Source: Dictyostelium discoideum
Taxonomy: Eukaryota
Direction of reading: 5' to 3'
DNA length: 64,000 bases
Assembly (NCBI GenBank): GCA_000004695.1
Contig: CM000154.2
Span: 4,576,001 to 4,640,000, forward strand
Part shown: positions 47,990 through 57,015 of the stretch, one piece after another
How positions within the stretch are numbered: position 1 is the stretch's first letter
How the letters are laid out: every line of letters begins with the position of its first letter
The notes under the pieces: model-generated
What the model saw: only the letters and a program-made list of their open reading frames with translations
What the model was told of the DNA's origin: nothing
Databases searched by the model: none
Translations under genes and position numbers: made by a program

Positions 47990-48076
47990 ATAATAATATT
48001 TACTTTCAGATGGTATTAATTTTGAAATTGAATTTCCAAAAAATAAAAAGATAATTAAAATTAAAATAATATTCAT
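44639..48076 (-). CDS. Type I membrane protein with LRR, EGF-like and IPT/TIG modules (Tgr/adhesion-like), 3 exons: complement(join(44639..44871,44968..47892,48004..48076)).
   Basis: Exon 1 is a signal peptide (MNIILILIIFLFFGNSISKLIPSE, GTAAAT donor, phase 1). Exon 2 holds LRR-like segments (LxLxNNxL), two EGF-like motifs (CTGKGFCDRNSGECICNCHNKGSCD; CTNSTMGICDQRIGQCNC) and a TIG-like block (GGNVTLKGWYG..FIGGLECTP), ending at a GTAAAG donor. Exon 3 carries a TM segment (WFLPVVIVVPVVSATIIVILSLVVY) and a short tail (KYRRALRLKLQSLMDPKTIKMNDLN*). Confidence 0.6.
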
Positions 48077-48321
48077 GTTATTTAATCATTATATAGGAGT
48101 AAAATATCTGTTTTAAAAAAAAAAAAAAATAAAAAAATGTAAAAAAATTAAAAAATAAAAAAATAAAATTTTAAAAAAAAATAAAAATATAATGCACCAA
48201 AACATGTTAATTTTAGATATTTTTTTATTTTTATAATAATTTGGTCAATAAAAAAAAAATTTGGATATTTTTTTTTTTTTTTTTGAGATATTTTTTTTCT
48301 TTTTTTATTAATTATTATTTT

Positions 48322-49596
48322 TTATAAAAGTTTAGCAATAATAAACCAATCTAATGATGGTATTAATTTTGAATTATTATCTAAAAGTTTTGAACCAAAA
48401 TGACCTGAATAAATTGTACTATTGTATTCTTGATCAATATCTTTTAATTTTATAGGACATGATACATATCCATTTGGAATTGAATCACCATTAACTCTTG
48501 GCCATGGAAAATCCTCTTCTTCATCAAAAAATAAAAATTTTTTATCATTGTATTTACCATCATTATCGAATACACAAAAAGTAGCTAACCAACCTGTTAA
48601 AACTGATCCACCAGATCGTTGTTTATAATCAACTATTTGATTCCACCAAGTTGTATCAGGATTTCCTTTTGCAGAATCAATGAATTTATCAATCACTGCT
48701 AATAAATATTTATTTAACCATTTTTTAATTACACCATCTTTATTATCGAATTGAATTAATTTTTCAACTCTTTCTTTTAAATTTATCCAATCATTAATTT
48801 CACCTAATAATGTTACTTCTGAAAGTCCACATTTACATCCATATCTATAATCGAAATATTTCTTCATTGTTGACATTAATGCAATTGAAAATACAACTTT
48901 ATCAGATTCTGTTGTAGTTGTAAAATCTGGTATAATTAAATCTTTAATTGATGGATCTTTAATATTTGATTGAATTTGATTTGACATTTCAATTGTTAAT
49001 TTTTCAAAAGGTGCTTCTAATATTCTATATTCAGTCTCAACTATTAATTCCTTTTTACCAGTAAAATCTACAAATTTTTCACGTAATTCTTCAGAGTTTT
49101 TATTTATGTAGAACGATAATTGAGTTAATATTGCCATCCAGATATTATCTGGACGTAATACCAAATGATTGTGATTATTATAACTTTCCCAAGCAGAGTA
49201 TACAAAACTATTTAAATTAAATGATTCTAATTTTGAACCATCATCATCGCCATTGATAATACTTGTTTGTAATACTTTGTATTTTTTAGATTCTTCACCA
49301 ATTTCATTTTTAATTATTGCACTTGCTTCCATTCTTTCTTGATAATAAATTGAATGATTATTTTTAATTGAATTTAAAGGTTCATTTGTTTTTAATAATT
49401 CATTTTTTAAAAAATCATCAACATTAAATTCATATTTTAATTCCCATTTATTTTGTTCAATATCACAAACTCTAAATGAAATTGATTTATTATTTTCATC
49501 TCTTTTAATTTTGAAATTGTATTTAATTACTTTTGAATCTTTACCATCCTCATCAGCATGATGACAATTTATATTTATTTTTCTATTATTTTTCAT
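48322..49596 (-). CDS. Hypothetical 424-aa protein (conserved eukaryotic DUF-like).
   Basis: Single ORF with ATG at 49596 and an AT-rich promoter upstream. Its C-terminal half (..GNPDTTWWNQIVDYKQRSGGSVLTGWLATFCVFDNDGKYND..) is duplicated at 50019-50880. Confidence 0.55.
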   Translation of the reverse strand: MKNNRKININCHHADEDGKDSKVIKYNFKIKRDENNKSISFRVCDIEQNKWELKYEFNVDDFLKNELLKTNEPLNSIKNNHSIYYQERMEASAIIKNEIGEESKKYKVLQTSIINGDDDGSKLESFNLNSFVYSAWESYNNHNHLVLRPDNIWMAILTQLSFYINKNSEELREKFVDFTGKKELIVETEYRILEAPFEKLTIEMSNQIQSNIKDPSIKDLIIPDFTTTTESDKVVFSIALMSTMKKYFDYRYGCKCGLSEVTLLGEINDWINLKERVEKLIQFDNKDGVIKKWLNKYLLAVIDKFIDSAKGNPDTTWWNQIVDYKQRSGGSVLTGWLATFCVFDNDGKYNDKKFLFFDEEEDFPWPRVNGDSIPNGYVSCPIKLKDIDQEYNSTIYSGHFGSKLLDNNSKLIPSLDWFIIAKLL

Positions 49597-50018
49597 TTGT
49601 GTTTGAATTTCCCAACAACAATAAAAAAAAAAAAAAAAATTTTTTTTTTTTAATAACTCAAAGAACCATTTTACCAGAAAGTGAGAAAAAAAAAAGAAAA
49701 AAAAAAAAAAAAAAAAATTTAAAATAATAAAATAAAAATAGATTTGGTTATTAAATTGTTAAAGAGGTCATATTTTCTATTGTTGATATATTATTCATGA
49801 AGATTGTAAAAAATCTTTTTTCTTTTTTTTAATATTCCATGTTTTTCTATTTAAATACTCGAAAAAAAAAAAAAAATAACCAAATGAATATGGTTCTCAT
49901 AGAGATACTAGTTCTCATTTGTTGGATATATTGTTATTATTGTTATTTTTATTTATAAAACTTTTTATTTTTTTTTTTATTTTCCCTTTTTTAAATTCTC
50001 AAGTTTAGCAACAATAAA

Positions 50019-50880
50019 CTAATCTAATGATTGTATTAATTTTGAATTATTATCTAATAGTTTTGAACCGAAATGACCTGAATAAATTGTACTATCGTAT
50101 TCATGATTTAAATCTTTTAGTAAAACTGGACATGATACGAATCCATTTGCAATTGTATCAATATTAACTCTTGGCCTTGGAAAATCCTCTTTTTGATTAC
50201 CCTTATATGACATTATATATCTATCATCATTATATTTACCATCATTATCGAATACACAAAAAGTAGCTAGCCAACCTGTTAAAACTGATCCACCAGATTG
50301 TGATTTATAATCAACGATTTGATTCCACCAAGTTGTATCAGGATTTCCATTTGCAGAATCAATGAATTTATCAATCACTGGTAATAAATAAACTAACCAT
50401 TTTTTAATTTCACCATTTTTATTATCGAACTGAATTAATTTTTCAACTCTTTCTTTTAAATTTATCTAATCATTAATTTCACTTAAAAATGTTACTTCTG
50501 AAAGTCCACATAATGATTGGAAAACAAACTTAAAATAATTTTTCATTGTTGACATTAATGCAATTGAAAATACAACTTTATCAGATTCTGTTGTAGTTGT
50601 AAAATCTGGTATAATTAAATCTTTAATTGATGGATCTTTAATATTTGATTGAATTTGATTTGACATTTCAATTGTTAATTTATCAAAAGGTGCTTTTAAT
50701 ATTGGATATCCTGTCTTAACTACTAATTTCTTTTAACCAGTAAAATCTACAAATTTTTCACGTAATTCTTCAGAGTTTTTATTTAAATAGATGAAAATTG
50801 AGTTAATATTGCCATCCAGATATTATCTGGACGTAATACTAAATGATTGTGATTATTATAACTTTCCCAATAGTTCGTTT
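50019..50880 (-). pseudogene. Decayed tandem duplicate of the 3' two-thirds of gene 48322..49596.
   Basis: About 85% identical, including the 3' flank (compare 49930-50020 with 48240-48330), but with internal stops and frameshifts. The track splits it into ORFs 50019..50378 and 50466..50666. It has no 5' part. Confidence 0.65.
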
Positions 50881-50892
50881 GCATTTTGAAGA

Positions 50893-50990
50893 TTTACCAC
50901 TTGATTTTGAAAATGTGCCACTTGATTTTGAAGATTTAACACTGATTTTGAAGACCAGGAACTTGAACTGAAAGACCTTCAGCGTGTAAT
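50893..50990. repeat. Short tandem repeat of about 21 bp, 4-5 units (cacttgattttgaaRatKtRcc).
   Basis: ..ttgcattttgaagatttacc acttgattttgaaaatgtgcc acttgattttgaagatttaac actgattttgaagaccaggaac ttgaactgaaagacc. Confidence 0.7.
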
Positions 50991-51640
50991 CGTTAAGTTT
51001 CACATTCAACAATTATTCTTATAATACTTGGAGCAGATGGATAGTTTGGAAATCTAAAAAAAAGACCGGGGGATGGATCTTGATTTATTATATTTTGGAG
51101 AACATTAACTGGGGGAGCATTTGCATGGAAAAAATTCCATTGACCTTCTCCATAACCATGAGCAGATGTCTTTAAACCACCCTCGTTGAAACTATTTTCT
51201 GGACACCCAAATACTGAAAGGAACCACTCACCATGACCGGCAACTGGACCATCAAAACCTCTATATTACATTAAAACTTCGGCATTTGCCATTTCTGGTG
51301 GGTTTGCATTTGGAGTCCCCATCTCCTTGAGCCACCAGCTAGATCTGAGTAACCTCTGTGGTACAACCTTATCCCATCTTGATGGGATGCTTTACCGATA
51401 TATAGCAAGGTCAATACATGAGGAACCATATTCCCGAAAACAAAGTATACCCCGTTTCCCAACAAAAGCGTTTACTCCAGGACAGGCACTATTTGCGTTT
51501 CTTCTAATGAACATATTATCGTAAAACCATTGCGTGTTTGGAGTTATAGAATTGTCGTTGATAATACCAACATAGTGATGTGAGTTACAGGAGTTCACAA
51601 AAAAAAAGATCAATAAAATAATTTTAAATAAAATTTTCAT
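50990..51640 (-). pseudogene. GC-rich (about 42% G+C) degenerate ORF for a secreted protein, with a frameshift and stops.
   Basis: ATG at 51640 gives a signal peptide (MKILFKIILLIFFFVNSCNS) and then HHYVGIINDNSITPNTQWFYDNMFIRRNANSACPGVNAFVGKRGILCFREYGSSCIDLAIY. Protein-like reading then continues only by frame switching (..GYSDLAGGSRRWGLQ.. / ..GFDGPVAGHGEWFLSVFGCPENSFNEGGLKTSAHGYGEGQWNFFHANAPPVNVLQ..). The composition is unlike the flanking sequence (about 22% G+C). Confidence 0.4.
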
Positions 51641-52086
51641 TTGGAGATAGTTATTTATATGAAGTATAATATAATATAAAAAAAAAAAAAAAAAAATTTA
51701 TACAAAAATAAAATTTGGATTACATAAATAAAGTTTTTTTACTAAAGGACACACTTTCAATTTGCAACAAAAGGGAATACAACAAACTAATTAAAAATAT
51801 TAAAAAATAAATTATCAACGACTACTGTATACCAAGTACAACCTTACTAAATAGAGTAATTGTTGATCAATTTATTTAAGATATAATAATCCAACATACT
51901 ATTTTATTATTGAAACATTAAAATTTTTAATCCCATAAATTTTGAAAATCTAAAAAAACAAAAACATTACTCGAAATAAAAAAATTTTCAAAAAAAGAGG
52001 GAAAAAACATTTAGGTAAAATCCTATTTATAAATAAACTTTTAATTATTGCTTATTTCTTTAAATGGATAAACACTCGTTAATCAA

Positions 52087-52137
<51 letters not shown>

Positions 52138-52183
52138 TATCTGAATTTTTAAATGATATTATTTTATTTATTGGTTTTAAATA

Positions 52184-54889
52184 TTATTCTTTTTCAATAC
52201 AAACTTTAACTTTGTATTGTATTTGATGAAGGATAGAATCAGAATAATCGATGGATCCAGATTTAACATTATAACAAATGAGGGTATTATTATATGCATA
52301 GTTAAATTCTACTTCTTTTGGATAACAGGCAAGTTTACTTGATGCAGAGTTGAATTCTGTGATAATAGTTTGATTGGTAATTACAATTGGCTCTACTTCG
52401 GATGGTGGAACTTCAAAGCATGCAGAATAATCTGAAGCTTTTACCAATGAATTCTTTGAGCATGATGAGTATTTATTGTAATTATAGCATTCTACATTAT
52501 TAATGAATGAATGTTCAGGTTCACCGCCATCACTAACACATTCAACAATGTTTGATTGGGTTTCACTATTTGAACAGAAAATAGTAGAATTATGATTGTA
52601 TGTATATTCGTTAAATCCATCTTTACAATAGATTGGACTATTTTGACCATAGATTATCATTGATTTTTCATTGGCATCATATTCACATTTTAATGAACTT
52701 GAAACTTTTGAAACCGTTGGAATAGAGAATTTATAAGATGCAGATTTTGAACGAACACCACAATTAATTTCAGTTCCAAAGTTGGTTGTATTACATTTAA
52801 TACCATTATTATTAGCATTAATTTGACAAGTGAATGATTTGTTGAAATTGAAACTTAAATTATTATTATCAATACATGTTACAGTTTCATTGAATTGATT
52901 ATCAATTGTAAAGATACGATCATTATGATTAATTGAGAAAAATACTGCAGAGTAAGGTGTTGAAGCAATTGATAAAAGATTGGATGTTGGTACTGGTGCT
53001 GTTGATGATGATAATAGGTTACCACCCATTGATGATTTTGTTACCACCATTGCTAAAGCTATAGTTGATACACGTTTAATACCATTCTTTGCAACCTGAG
53101 TTACAACTCTTCTTGTTACTGCTGCGAATCCAAATTGTAATGATTTCTCTAATGCTCCTGAAAATGATGCTGTAGATGCTAATATTGAACCAGATTTAGC
53201 TGCTGTTGCAGATGTTGCCAATGCTATTTGTGTAAGTGGTAAAGCAGTTGATGCTAATAATGCTGCTGCAACCAAAGCTGCTAATCCAATAACAATAAAA
53301 ATTACAATATTTGTTGGAGATTCTGGATCAACATAAGAAAAGTAATTATTAAGACTATTTAATTGACTTTGAACATTAACACGAATTGGTAAACCTTTTC
53401 CTTTACCTGGTGGTACAGTACATTTTACATTTTTAGAATCAACCCACTCCCAGTTGACACAAAGTACGCCATTAATAGAAACTGTACCATTTGACGAATT
53501 AACAGAGTTTTTCAATGATTTTGGAACAAAGTCATAACCTTTGATTGTAATAGTTTTACCACCTGAAGATGGTGCTGCATATTGTTTATTATCCAATGAT
53601 GGTGGATTATAAGAGAATGATCTTGTTTCATTTGATTTTTGTCCACCAACTAAAAGTACAACTGAATGGTTTTTACCAATACCTGCAACTGGATTAAATG
53701 AGAAACTTGTTGAATTAATCCATTTAATATCTTTATATTGAGTTTTACCATTGATTGTTATTGAATTTACTGAAACATTTTTGTTTTCTTCTTTATTATA
53801 AAAATCTTTTAATTCAGCGGGAACGAAATTGAAACCAACATATTTAATATCAGTGGCACCATCAGTTGATACTGTAATTTTATTTGTAATATTTGGTTTA
53901 TTATAAGAGAATAAAAGTTGATTTTCAGATTTTTGTTCACCAATAGTAATATTAACTTTTAGATTGGCACCGATACCAGGTGGAATAATACAACTAACAT
54001 TGGTTGAATTTATCCATTGAACTGATCCACATTCAAATGTACCTATATAAATTCTTGAAGTATTTCTCCAAGATGCAATTGTTTTATTTGAATCATAAAA
54101 TGGTGAAATAAATTCGAATGGATTGAAATTAAAACCTGTAATATTTAAATATTGTGGTTTTTGTGGAGGAGTTACACAATTTAATCTACTACAATTACCA
54201 CCATGAGTATCTGAACTATTGGCAGTTAAGAATTTGGAAAGCCATGGTAGAGAATATGAATATTTATAAGTATATCTGGCAGTGTTTGCAAGTGTAACTT
54301 GGATTGTTCTATTAGCACCAACATTTATTGGGAAACTACATAGGTAAAGATCGAAATCGGTTGAATAATATGCATATTGGGATTTCAAGTATGGACAAAT
54401 ATTTGAATAATCGATTTTACTATTTGCAATTACATCTGAAGTACAACGTTGAATTTCACAAAATGAGTCAGTGCCATCCACTGTTGCTTCTGGAATTTCT
54501 TCAACAATCGAACCTAAACCTCTACCAACTATCCAATATTGATTTATATTTGATGTATTCAAATGTTTATCATCGTAATATAATTTATCAATAATCATTG
54601 ATGGATATGTAAATTTAATCGATGCAGTTGAGGCATTCATACCTGTGTTTATTGCAAAAACATTTACAGTATAAAAACCTGGTGGTACAATAACCTCCAT
54701 AATCTTATCAGAGGTGAATTTTGTAATTTCTGCAATTTCTGAACCAAAATAGATATTTGTGCTTCCATTGAAAAAGTTTTGACCATTAATAGTTACTACA
54801 TCTCCAATTTTACCTGTTGTTTTTGATAAACTACTAATAATTACATTTTCAAATGTAAAGTAATTTACAACACCACTTTTAATATTCAT
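52184..54889 (-). CDS. IPT/TIG-repeat protein with a hydrophobic Ala/Ser-rich segment and a Cys-rich C-terminal region. Probably the 3' exon of the giant gene that begins at 60495.
   Basis: Multiple TIG-like units (GDVVTINGQNFF..; LNITGFNFNPF..; ITINGKTQYKD..; ITIKGYDFVP..). A hydrophobic stretch (IVIFIVIGLAALVAAALLAS...) is followed by a 330-aa Cys/N-glycosylation-rich tail. There is no signal peptide at its ATG. The upstream ORF ends ..GSK + GTATGT at 55018, only 125 bp away, and an acceptor AAAAG|TGG at about 54878 keeps the frame. Confidence 0.55.
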   Translation of the reverse strand: MNIKSGVVNYFTFENVIISSLSKTTGKIGDVVTINGQNFFNGSTNIYFGSEIAEITKFTSDKIMEVIVPPGFYTVNVFAINTGMNASTASIKFTYPSMIIDKLYYDDKHLNTSNINQYWIVGRGLGSIVEEIPEATVDGTDSFCEIQRCTSDVIANSKIDYSNICPYLKSQYAYYSTDFDLYLCSFPINVGANRTIQVTLANTARYTYKYSYSLPWLSKFLTANSSDTHGGNCSRLNCVTPPQKPQYLNITGFNFNPFEFISPFYDSNKTIASWRNTSRIYIGTFECGSVQWINSTNVSCIIPPGIGANLKVNITIGEQKSENQLLFSYNKPNITNKITVSTDGATDIKYVGFNFVPAELKDFYNKEENKNVSVNSITINGKTQYKDIKWINSTSFSFNPVAGIGKNHSVVLLVGGQKSNETRSFSYNPPSLDNKQYAAPSSGGKTITIKGYDFVPKSLKNSVNSSNGTVSINGVLCVNWEWVDSKNVKCTVPPGKGKGLPIRVNVQSQLNSLNNYFSYVDPESPTNIVIFIVIGLAALVAAALLASTALPLTQIALATSATAAKSGSILASTASFSGALEKSLQFGFAAVTRRVVTQVAKNGIKRVSTIALAMVVTKSSMGGNLLSSSTAPVPTSNLLSIASTPYSAVFFSINHNDRIFTIDNQFNETVTCIDNNNLSFNFNKSFTCQINANNNGIKCNTTNFGTEINCGVRSKSASYKFSIPTVSKVSSSLKCEYDANEKSMIIYGQNSPIYCKDGFNEYTYNHNSTIFCSNSETQSNIVECVSDGGEPEHSFINNVECYNYNKYSSCSKNSLVKASDYSACFEVPPSEVEPIVITNQTIITEFNSASSKLACYPKEVEFNYAYNNTLICYNVKSGSIDYSDSILHQIQYKVKVCIEKE

Positions 54890-55015
54890 TTTTATATTTT
54901 TAAAACAATAAAATGAAATATAACTAATTAATTTAATTAAAAAAAAAAAAAAAAAAAAAATTGTAAATATATTATGTTTTTAAAATTAAAAATTATTATT
55001 AAAAAAAAAATTAAT

Positions 55016-57015
55016 TTATACATACTTTGAACCAGCACCAATTGCCTTAATATAAAATTGTGTATTTGTTAAAAATGTAATTGTATCTGTAACATTAGTT
55101 TCACCAATTTTTACAACCAAACCATATCTACTATCAGTTGCTTGTAAAAAGTTTTCACCAGTAACAGTAATTAATGAATTATATTTTGGATTTGTAGCAG
55201 AGTAAGTAATTTTAGTTACAGTTGGAATTGGGAATTTGAAGTAATATAATATATTTCTTGGATATAATGATTCGTAAATATTTTTGGAATATTCATTATA
55301 AATTTTAATTCTTTTATTTTGAAGACCGATAGTTAATGAACTTAATCTAAAGATAATTCTACATGTTCCGTTAGTGTATCTTTGGATGGAATTAAAACTA
55401 GCTTGACTTGAACCAACATATGCAAAAAGTGTATTGGTACTTGTTGGACAAAATCTGGCATTGACAGTAATCTCTTGTGATTTTACAGTAACGTCATCAA
55501 CAATTGGACCAATTGGACATGAATTAATGATTTTTCCACTTTGGAAATCTTGAATTGAAGATTCAATGAATGAACAAATCTTAAAATTTACAAAAACCAT
55601 TGATAAACCAAAAGATGAATTGGTTTTTGAAGGAGCGAAATAAGTATCAAAATTTGTATAACTTTTTCTGGTTGAATTGTTTTTCAATGCTAATTTAAAT
55701 AAATCAGAAGTAATTTGTTTTATATCGTCAAATGAATTCTTTGGTTTAACTTCTGTGGATGTATATGTACAAACATAATGACGAGTTGTTGAATCTACAT
55801 ATTTTGAAAGAATATTAATTTTTGAAACAACATTTGTAAGTTTTAAATATTCATAGAATTGACCTGATCTCCAATTTCCAATAATTGGATTATCAATCCA
55901 TCTTTTTTCAAAGAATTTAATAACTTTGGCAAATGTGGTAGTATTATATTTTATTAATTCATTTGGACAAACACCAATTGTTAAAAGAGTACTATTTAAA
56001 TCATTTTTAGTATTTAATAAATTTAAATCCTATTTTTTTTTATAAAAAAAAAAAAAAATAAAAAATAAATATTAATATGATATATATTTTTAATATTAAA
56101 ATAAAAATATTTTTTAAAAAAAAAAAAAAAACTTACATTTTGGGTAATACCAGTACAATTATAACGGCAATAATCTCTTGATGGACAATTTCTAATTGTT
56201 TCTGTAGTGAATGCATTTGCAAGTGTGGTTTCTAAAAAGGCACAAGTTTTGTTATTGATAGAGATAATAGTAAGACCTAATGCTGATGGACTTGATGGGT
56301 GTGGTGTGTGTGTAACCGTTAAACCTCTATCTACTTGTCTGTGAATTGATTGATTAGCAAACTTTCTAAGATCTATTGATTGATCTAAAATACTTGAAAA
56401 TGTTTTAAATTTGCCAGTGGAAGATATGTAGCTACAATAATTATTATTTGTTTTAGTGACAAATTTTGAAAGGATTTGTTTGGTAATTGTGGAATTGGTG
56501 AATAGGAGATTATAGAATTGGCCAGTAGTCCAATCATTTGGTATTTTGTTGTCATACCAATATTGTGAAAATAATGTTGATAATTGAATATCTGTGTAGT
56601 TTGATTGGAATTCACCACCACAAACGCCTCCTGAAAGAAGAACATGAGTGATTGAATTAAATGTATAAGCTCTTTGAGGTGTTCTACAGGTGTACTCACA
56701 TGGATTTTTAAGGGCTGGATTATTGGGGTAAATTTGTGAGAATGTTTTAGTGCATGCATGTTCTGAATACACCCCAATATAAATTTCTGCACTTGATTTT
56801 GATATACTATAAATACGGAATGGATATAAAGTATTACATCTTAATTGTAATGTAAACTTTCTATTTGTTGTGCCAGTATAAGTGTGTATTATATCTATTC
56901 CAGATGATTGATATCTAAATTGTTGAGATTCAACGCTACCATATGGAATGGTTAAATTCATACATGATTGATATGCAACACCTGAGATCATACATTGATG
57001 CGTGTTTCCACCCAT
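55016..57015 (-). CDS. Cys-rich repeat protein segment: complement(join(55016..56029,56137..57015)). Probably the middle exons of the same giant gene.
   Basis: GTAAGT donor at 56136..56135 and acceptor AATAG at 56031..56030, both phase 0. Encodes ..CEYTCRTPQRAYTFNS.., ..DYCRYNCTGITQN|DLNLLNTKNDL..HYVCTYTSTEVKPKN.. and a TIG-like end. The ATG at 57015 is preceded by an in-frame TAG. The link to the upstream exon at 57267 is unresolved; a possible micro-exon lies at about 57175. Confidence 0.5.

Follow-up and report, generated by a model that had tools for sequence, protein, structure and literature searches.

Unprocessed pseudogenes and other relics of multigene families that evolve by birth and death constitute a well-known general category of genomic sequence. 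The element described here, a G+C-rich feature on the minus strand of Dictyostelium discoideum chromosome 5, shows no essential difference from typical relics of this kind. It occupies positions 50868-51714 of a 64-kb stretch (hereafter the window, to which all positions without a locus label refer) with an overall G+C content of 21.9%. The feature is very probably a non-functional, unprocessed, multiply disrupted and 3'-truncated copy of a multigene family specific to Dictyostelium. Like typical birth-and-death relics, it belongs to a family that is dispersed or clustered in segmental duplications, with independently disabled copies, near-neutral ratios of nonsynonymous to synonymous substitution (dN/dS) and breakpoints at microhomology.

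The feature stands out from its surroundings by its base composition, as the original prediction had recognized. It forms the top G+C peak of the whole window at both the 300-bp scale (0.45 at 51198-51497) and the 600-bp scale (0.403 at 50944-51543), compared with a window mean of 0.22 (standard deviation 0.056) and a runner-up peak of 0.352. G+C content is 37.2% over 50880-51640 and 40% over 51050-51590, and 12-17% in the flanking intergenic and non-coding DNA. Only one copy of the family is present in the window. Upstream of its coding part lies a conserved 5' flank (51641-51714, minus strand), a probable remnant of the promoter and 5' untranslated region, which aligns by blastn to loci L001-L006 with 92-93% identity; homology to the paralogs ends at ~51714.

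The parent family was recovered by word-indexed searches and by a single exhaustive HMMER run with a profile against 1.84 billion representative proteins. True members were found only in D. discoideum, D. cf. discoideum, D. dimigraforme and D. purpureum, and the profile search returned nine true hits, all from Dictyostelium, D. purpureum included. One of the recovered proteins, P0001 (DDB_G0290811 of strain AX4), matches the window exactly, and its paralogs reach 501 amino acids (aa). Full-length members of ~490 aa are led by a signal peptide, followed by a globular N-domain of ~200 aa rich in Gly, Ala, Pro, Trp and Arg. The N-domain is succeeded by three to six LQNQVxN heptads (coiled-coil), a GGGIGG/DGK-rich linker and a Cys-rich, predicted helical C-domain that ends in ...LANCE. 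Literature searches for DDB_G0290811 and for the other annotated AX4 member, DDB_G0275481, found no mention of either.

The window sequence bears the marks of this family. The signal peptide MKILFKIILLIFFFVNSCNS is followed directly by HHYVG at 51640-51566, as in the paralogs, and the invariant N-domain columns (F..P.A.H.E, S.FG...N...EGG and W..F) are all present in the reconstructed sequence, with the loss of one near-invariant Trp. The window N-domain matches family members with E-values of 1e-15 to 1e-76, and LQNQVxN heptads follow it. The Gly-rich linker and the Cys-rich C-domain (WLKSGCxCPETPPCPVV...LANCE) are not found in the window, where homology stops at 50868. Judged by these comparisons, the window holds a fragment of a family member and not a complete one.

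The damage to this copy was called by aligning the window to paralog DNA, and all of the following positions are on the minus strand. The reading frame opens at an ATG (51640-51638) with the signal peptide, whose coding segment (51581-51640) is intact, as originally predicted; the peptide is of a typical kind, and an identical one heads the paralogs in loci L001, L002, L003 and L006. The first part of the N-domain (HHYVGIINDNSITPNTQWFYDNMFIRRNANSACPGVNAF, 51464-51580) shares the ATG frame. It is followed by a +1 insertion in a G/A run (lesion 1, 51457-51463), where the DNA alignments set TTGGGAAACGGGG in this copy against ATGG-AAATGGGG in the paralogs, and which puts the following 48 codons out of frame. 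The second part of the N-domain (GNGVYFVFGNMVPHVLTLLYIGKASHQDGIRLYHRGYSDLAGGSRRWG, 51316-51459) is legible only in the +1 frame, whereas its homologue lies in a single continuous frame in loci L002 and L009. A -1 deletion at ~51320 (lesion 2) brings back the ATG frame.

Downstream of this point, the lesions are of several kinds. A TAT codon has become TAA at 51266-51268 (lesion 3), where the paralogs have Tyr in ...EVLMYYRGFDG.... The N-domain part that follows (YRGFDGPVAGHGE-WFLSVFGCPENSFNEGG...IIVECET, 50996-51265) holds the family-invariant H-x-E, N and EGG residues and has lost the near-invariant Trp codon through a 3-bp deletion at ~51227 (lesion 4). Directly after ...ECET, a second nonsense substitution changes GAA to TAA at 50993-50995 (lesion 5); the paralogs have Glu here. 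The linker and LQNQVxN heptad repeats, delimited by tandem-repeat detection and paralog comparison, extend over 50868-50992 and contain a net -1 frameshift at ~50937-50949 (lesion 6) in the paralog alignment. Finally, everything 3' of 50868 is lost (lesion 7): family homology ends and DUF4419 sequence stands next.

These alignments agree with the earlier view that the gene is inactivated and that at least two frame switches are needed to read it; the switches are +1 near 51457-51463 and -1 near 51320. That account overlooked the ATG frame itself, which runs unbroken to 50993 except for the two in-frame TAA codons. A further frameshift lies in the repeats. The 21-bp tandem repeats that had been reported next to the gene also exist: Tandem Repeats Finder (TRF) places 3.5 copies of period 21 at 50883-50954, with 84% matches. 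They are, however, not a separate element that follows the gene. The repeat translates to LNLQNQVAHFQNQVVNLQNANELL in the shifted frame and represents the family's own LQNQVxN heptads, of which the paralogs carry three to six in frame.

The 3' end of the copy is defined by its junction with a neighboring gene family. An intact DUF4419 gene encoding 424 aa (Pfam PF14388, E = 9.6e-102) lies at 48322-49596 on the minus strand, and a decayed, 5'-truncated DUF4419 duplicate lies at 50001-50870 on the same strand, with open reading frame (ORF) pieces in different frames. The existence of a decayed duplicate next door had been noted before, and it holds: the duplicate is 89.5% identical, with eight gaps, to 48328-49192 of the intact gene, which is its source or sister. 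By blastn, family homology ends at ~50855-50870. A three-way alignment resolves the breakpoint to a 3-bp microhomology, TTG at 50868-50870, which is common to both parents and joins family sequence to codon ~135 of the DUF4419 paralog. The DUF4419 copy has lost ~134 codons at this junction and the family copy ~260, which would encode the remainder of the coil and both the Gly-rich linker and the Cys-rich C-domain.

A plausible order of events may be proposed from these features. Small indels at short G/A runs would have disabled the copy, along with two nonsense substitutions and slippage in repeat length. A later deletion, repaired at the 3-bp microhomology by end joining, would then have fused the family copy to the 5'-truncated DUF4419 paralog.

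Relatives with better preserved reading frames show what has been lost. P0019 (ACTFIZ_007373 / KAM9986971), encoded in two D. cf. discoideum assemblies (loci L007 and L008), is specified by an uninterrupted ORF of 1464 bp (487 codons) with 36% G+C. It resembles the window copy in its architecture and raised G+C content, and is a single ORF with an upstream partner gene. In contrast to the window copy, it belongs to a different subfamily, with an N-domain only ~46% identical and a YIG-like motif that reads LIG. The best-preserved relative of the same subfamily is P0021 (ACTA71_006024) of D. dimigraforme (locus L009), which is 90.6% identical to the window over the 725 bp that they share and has the signal peptide, N-domain, heptads and a similar G+C content in common with it. 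In the L009 copy, one continuous frame of ~484 codons takes in the coil, the Gly-rich linker and the Cys-rich C-domain, whereas six internal lesions affect the window copy, whose C-terminal ~260 codons are missing. The L009 frame is open from residue 3 of the signal peptide to the stop codon, and only the start codon is displaced by an insertion.

The second annotated AX4 member, DDB_G0275481 (P0006) on chromosome 2, is 88% identical to the window over the N-domain core and heptads. Unlike the window copy, it keeps the C-terminal half; its N-domain is rearranged and misses ~80 codons. Residues 2-42 of its model match the opposite (plus) strand of window positions 51470-51592. The copy thus appears to carry an inversion in addition to the ~80-codon deletion, and its public model is probably an artefact too.

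Because relatives with open frames and similar composition exist, the window copy is an ordinary decayed paralog. The original prediction had named an intact homolog of the same composition elsewhere in the genome as the finding that would lead to this view. That outcome largely holds, through homologs in the sister genomes of D. cf. discoideum and D. dimigraforme; none was seen in this genome, although AX4 could not be searched in full.

The history of the wider family is in keeping with that of the window copy. Deletions, frameshifts, nonsense codons, insertions or truncations have independently disabled nearly all copies examined (loci L001-L006, with a further copy in L002, and the chromosome 2 gene of AX4). 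Among copies of the same subfamily, dN/dS is 0.6-0.8 at synonymous divergences (dS) of 0.07-0.18. The copies sit in larger, segmentally duplicated blocks of several genes. Exchange among paralogs may also have shaped the family: P0019 and P0008, encoded in loci L008 and L006 on the same D. cf. discoideum contig, have C-domains that are 95.7% identical and N-domains that are only ~46% identical, a mosaic that suggests gene conversion or module exchange.

Nearly every copy has a conserved partner gene of ~115 aa (MNRNHHHPDFTEKLFQYDNLLEFEFGKDCTAEC...) upstream, transcribed divergently and found in loci L002-L009 and L011. Its positions are L002:7088-7432, L003:7205-7516, L004:7165-7503, L005:7579-7977, L006:7125-7472, L007:7258-7614, L008:7260-7616, L009:1877-2233 and 2628-2972, and L011:2262-2618. 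The distance to the main gene is ~390-530 bp in six loci and ~3 kb, beyond an insertion, in L009. Searches by tblastn with the partner proteins found no partner gene in the window, and locus L001 also has none. The partner protein lacks a signal peptide and matches no Pfam entry. It falls into two subfamilies (43-46% identical) whose divergence parallels that of the N-domain subfamilies, and its ORFs have mostly survived even beside a broken main gene. Orthologous partner pairs have a dN/dS of ~0.3 and paralogous pairs a dN/dS of ~1. The overall picture is of a lineage-specific gene pair under birth-and-death evolution.

Public annotations offer an alternative to a decayed paralog, since they treat the locus as protein-coding. 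According to this alternative, it is a functional, intron-containing gene, either the 128-aa DDB_G0290811 or a 358-aa chimera of N-domain and DUF4419 sequence. Splicing of exons 51396-51514 and 50993-51260 reproduces P0001 exactly, and the proposed intron between them (51261-51395, minus strand, 135 nt) has GT..AG ends. However, at 44% G+C this segment is far richer than the local non-coding DNA (12-17%), and its counterpart in the paralogs is coding sequence. Rather than a credible intron, it is an annotation device that skips lesions. In addition, 23 of the first 40 residues of the model (VGKRGILCFREYGSSCIDLAIYR) are read out of frame, the model lacks the signal peptide, and it stops at the nonsense codon that corresponds to Glu in the paralogs. 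The 358-aa chimera, from the annotation of assembly GCA_054883475.1, fuses the block to the DUF4419 remnant, and its DUF4419 part is itself full of frameshifts. Both protein-coding models are gene-prediction artefacts that splice around lesions, and a functional gene of either form is very unlikely.

A recently acquired gene from a bacterium, fungus or virus, now decaying, would be another way to account for the composition of the block, and a foreign origin had been raised at the outset as a possibility. The block is the local G+C maximum, it has no Pfam domain, and G+C at its third codon positions (GC3) is slightly above that of every long host ORF in the window. Nevertheless, the profile search described above matched Dictyostelium alone. 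No relative was found in IMG/VR viral contigs, in 185,579 prokaryotic (GTDB) genomes, or among PDB, NCBIfam and PHROGs entries. Both the signal peptide and the 5' flank are conserved and of native type, and the family is located in segmentally duplicated regions of the host genome.

Codon usage, which had been suggested as a check, does not support a foreign source either. The reconstructed N-domain has G+C fractions of 0.49, 0.43 and 0.27 at the first, second and third codon positions, respectively, and GC3 is 0.07-0.24 (maximum 0.244) across the window's 16 long host ORFs. Among synonymous codons the N-domain favors the same ones as the host (GGT, CCA, AGA, CAA, GAA and GAT), with somewhat more codons that end in C. 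For example, GGT accounts for 59-75%, CCA for 59-73%, AGA for 63-78% and CAA for 87-100%, and 73% of third positions are A or T, a dictyostelid type of codon choice. The combined share of Gly, Ala, Pro, Trp and Arg among its residues is 33%, compared with 12.5% in host ORFs, and Asn, Lys, Ile and Ser, which are encoded by A+T-rich codons, are depleted. Because of this enrichment, the G+C excess arises mainly at codon positions 1 and 2; it is mainly an amino-acid effect, inherited within the family, to which moderately C-rich third positions are added. Both intact and broken paralogs share these composition values. Taken with the distribution of relatives, which includes D. purpureum, this makes a foreign gene very improbable.

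Errors of sequencing or assembly in an otherwise intact gene, which the original prediction had kept in view, would be most credible for the two indels in short G/A runs, a type of site prone to error. Against this stands the independent, chromosome-scale assembly GCA_054883475.1 (locus L010), which is 100% identical, base for base, over 8,001 bp (window 48000-56000). The AX4 reference protein model is likewise translated from the same lesion-bearing sequence, and on these two grounds the lesions are real. Moreover, the lesions include two substitutions to TAA and a 3-bp deletion, and DUF4419 sequence physically takes the place of the gene's 3' half, so that errors deserve hardly any credence. 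Programmed recoding, by ribosomal frameshifting combined with stop-codon readthrough, has next to no chance of being correct: the window, L003 and the second L002 copy do shift frame in the same stretch of ~10 codons, at ...FNGNG|VYFVF, but the directions (+1 in the window, -1 in L003) and exact positions differ, L002, L004 and L009 are unshifted there, the shifts fall at mutable G-runs, and the window copy also lacks its 3' half.

Three observations nevertheless weigh against the view of the window copy as a non-functional, ordinarily decayed paralog. First, an ORF of 82 codons (51392-51640, minus strand) survives the lesions: 59 native codons, which specify the signal peptide and 39 further residues, are followed by 23 codons read out of frame. 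A short secreted product could be made from it, provided that transcription can still start from the conserved 5' flank. Second, a GC3 of 0.27 exceeds that of all 16 long host ORFs, a residual synonymous G+C excess beyond the amino-acid effect. The raised GC3 might stem from biased gene conversion between paralogs or from codon selection acting on the parent gene. Third, the best D. discoideum copy examined, in locus L011, has a 1-bp deletion. This copy (L011:3001-4463, assembly GCA_054859385.1) is orthologous to the intact gene at L007:8001-9464, with 99.2% identity, and differs from it by ten substitutions and the deletion, which shifts the frame between ...IPSNS and GPWYTFF. It may reflect either genuine inactivation in the very recent past or a homopolymer error in the assembly.

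What the parent family does is addressed by a single, tentative lead. Sequence and profile searches of the N-domain, C-domain and partner protein against Pfam, NCBIfam, PHROGs and PDB gave no credible match. AlphaFold2 models have a mean predicted local distance difference test score of 40 for P0009 (six aligned sequences) and 37.5 for P0019 (18 sequences), which is too low for a fold search. The N-domain motifs begin with GVY, followed after ~15 residues by YIGKA. An Arg stands eight residues beyond the Gly of YIG, then comes a beta-like stretch, and last an invariant Glu with, 12 residues further on, an Asn that is likewise invariant. This order and spacing resemble those of the GIY-YIG (URI) nuclease domain, as in the N-terminal domain of UvrC and the catalytic domain of I-TevI.

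The resemblance was followed with hhalign against UvrC and I-TevI alignments that had been validated with PDB entries 1YD6, 1YCZ and 1MK0. Only 14 columns of the N-domain, those of the YIGKA..R stretch, aligned confidently with these families (P 0.02-0.05, probability 1-2%), and the global-mode score was ~0. A forced alignment sets the motif residues opposite the catalytic Tyr, Tyr, Arg, Glu and Asn, with the Arg variable among copies. The corresponding UvrC positions are presumably Y19, Y29, R39, E76 and N88 in T. maritima numbering. No GIY-YIG match to the N-domain was found in Pfam, NCBIfam, PHROGs or PDB at E <= 10. Unlike in GIY-YIG domains, the Arg is not kept in all family copies, and the only intact member has LIG for YIG. 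The family protein is also secreted, an unusual property for a eukaryotic protein with this fold. The GIY-YIG likeness of the N-domain is a statistically unsupported lead and not a finding.

The neighborhoods of the family copies contain other sequences worth recording. The start of the D. dimigraforme gene is interrupted by a G+C-rich, repetitive insertion (L009:5900-6250), which lies in the signal-peptide coding region and parts the ORF from its ATG. One 100-bp segment of it reaches 63% G+C, and it contains repeated GGAKLASS.../ATPPRRGG-like reading frames. The same family gene is followed, ~2 kb downstream, by a DDE transposase gene. An origin as a mobile element was considered, with RVT_1 near the copy in L001 and DDE_Tnp near that in L009, and was rejected, as the copies share segmental-duplication blocks and no discrete element was seen, although terminal repeats were not searched for. 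A deoxynucleoside kinase (dNK) occurs near three copies, a YqaJ-like exonuclease near two and a weak Pox_VLTF3 match near one. These bacterial- and virus-like neighbors lie at L006:1-1400, L002:13489-15070, L006:12351-13639, L008:14258-15049, L004:12855-13225 and L008:16615-17464, and probably reflect shared segmental duplications and not a link to the family.

Around the relic itself, the intergenic DNA upstream contains homopolymer A tracts, one of ~47 A at 52087-52133 and one of 19 A at 51678-51696. They are typical dictyostelid intergenic sequence, and copies of such A runs gave many spurious blast matches. Directly upstream of the relic lies a 901-aa ORF with four IPT/TIG domains (52184-54889, minus strand), which falls inside a PF01833:TIG gene with a product of 2454 residues that extends past the end of locus L010. 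We take the IPT/TIG architecture of this ORF to recall the Tgr cell-recognition family of Dictyostelium. No tRNA genes were found in the window.

These results bear on both the annotation of the locus and the biology of the family. DDB_G0290811 and the 358-aa chimeric model should be flagged as a pseudogene fragment and not as protein-coding genes, and the G+C anomaly at this locus should not count in favor of horizontal transfer. A bolder proposal, which we consider improbable, is that the parent family is an unrecognized, head-to-head cassette of two genes, specific to the D. discoideum group. In it, a secreted protein whose variable N-domain could be a highly divergent hydrolase or nuclease of GIY-YIG-like type would act together with its small, co-diverging partner like a polymorphic toxin/antidote or a self/non-self recognition pair, under rapid birth and death and with gene conversion of the C-terminal module. 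If this were true, the window copy would be one discarded allele of such a system. The parent family is uncharacterized, restricted to Dictyostelium and secreted, with a paired upstream gene, a mosaic of variable N-domains and near-identical C-domains, and mostly pseudogenes among the copies examined. As such, it may merit study in the context of conflict or recognition in social amoebae.

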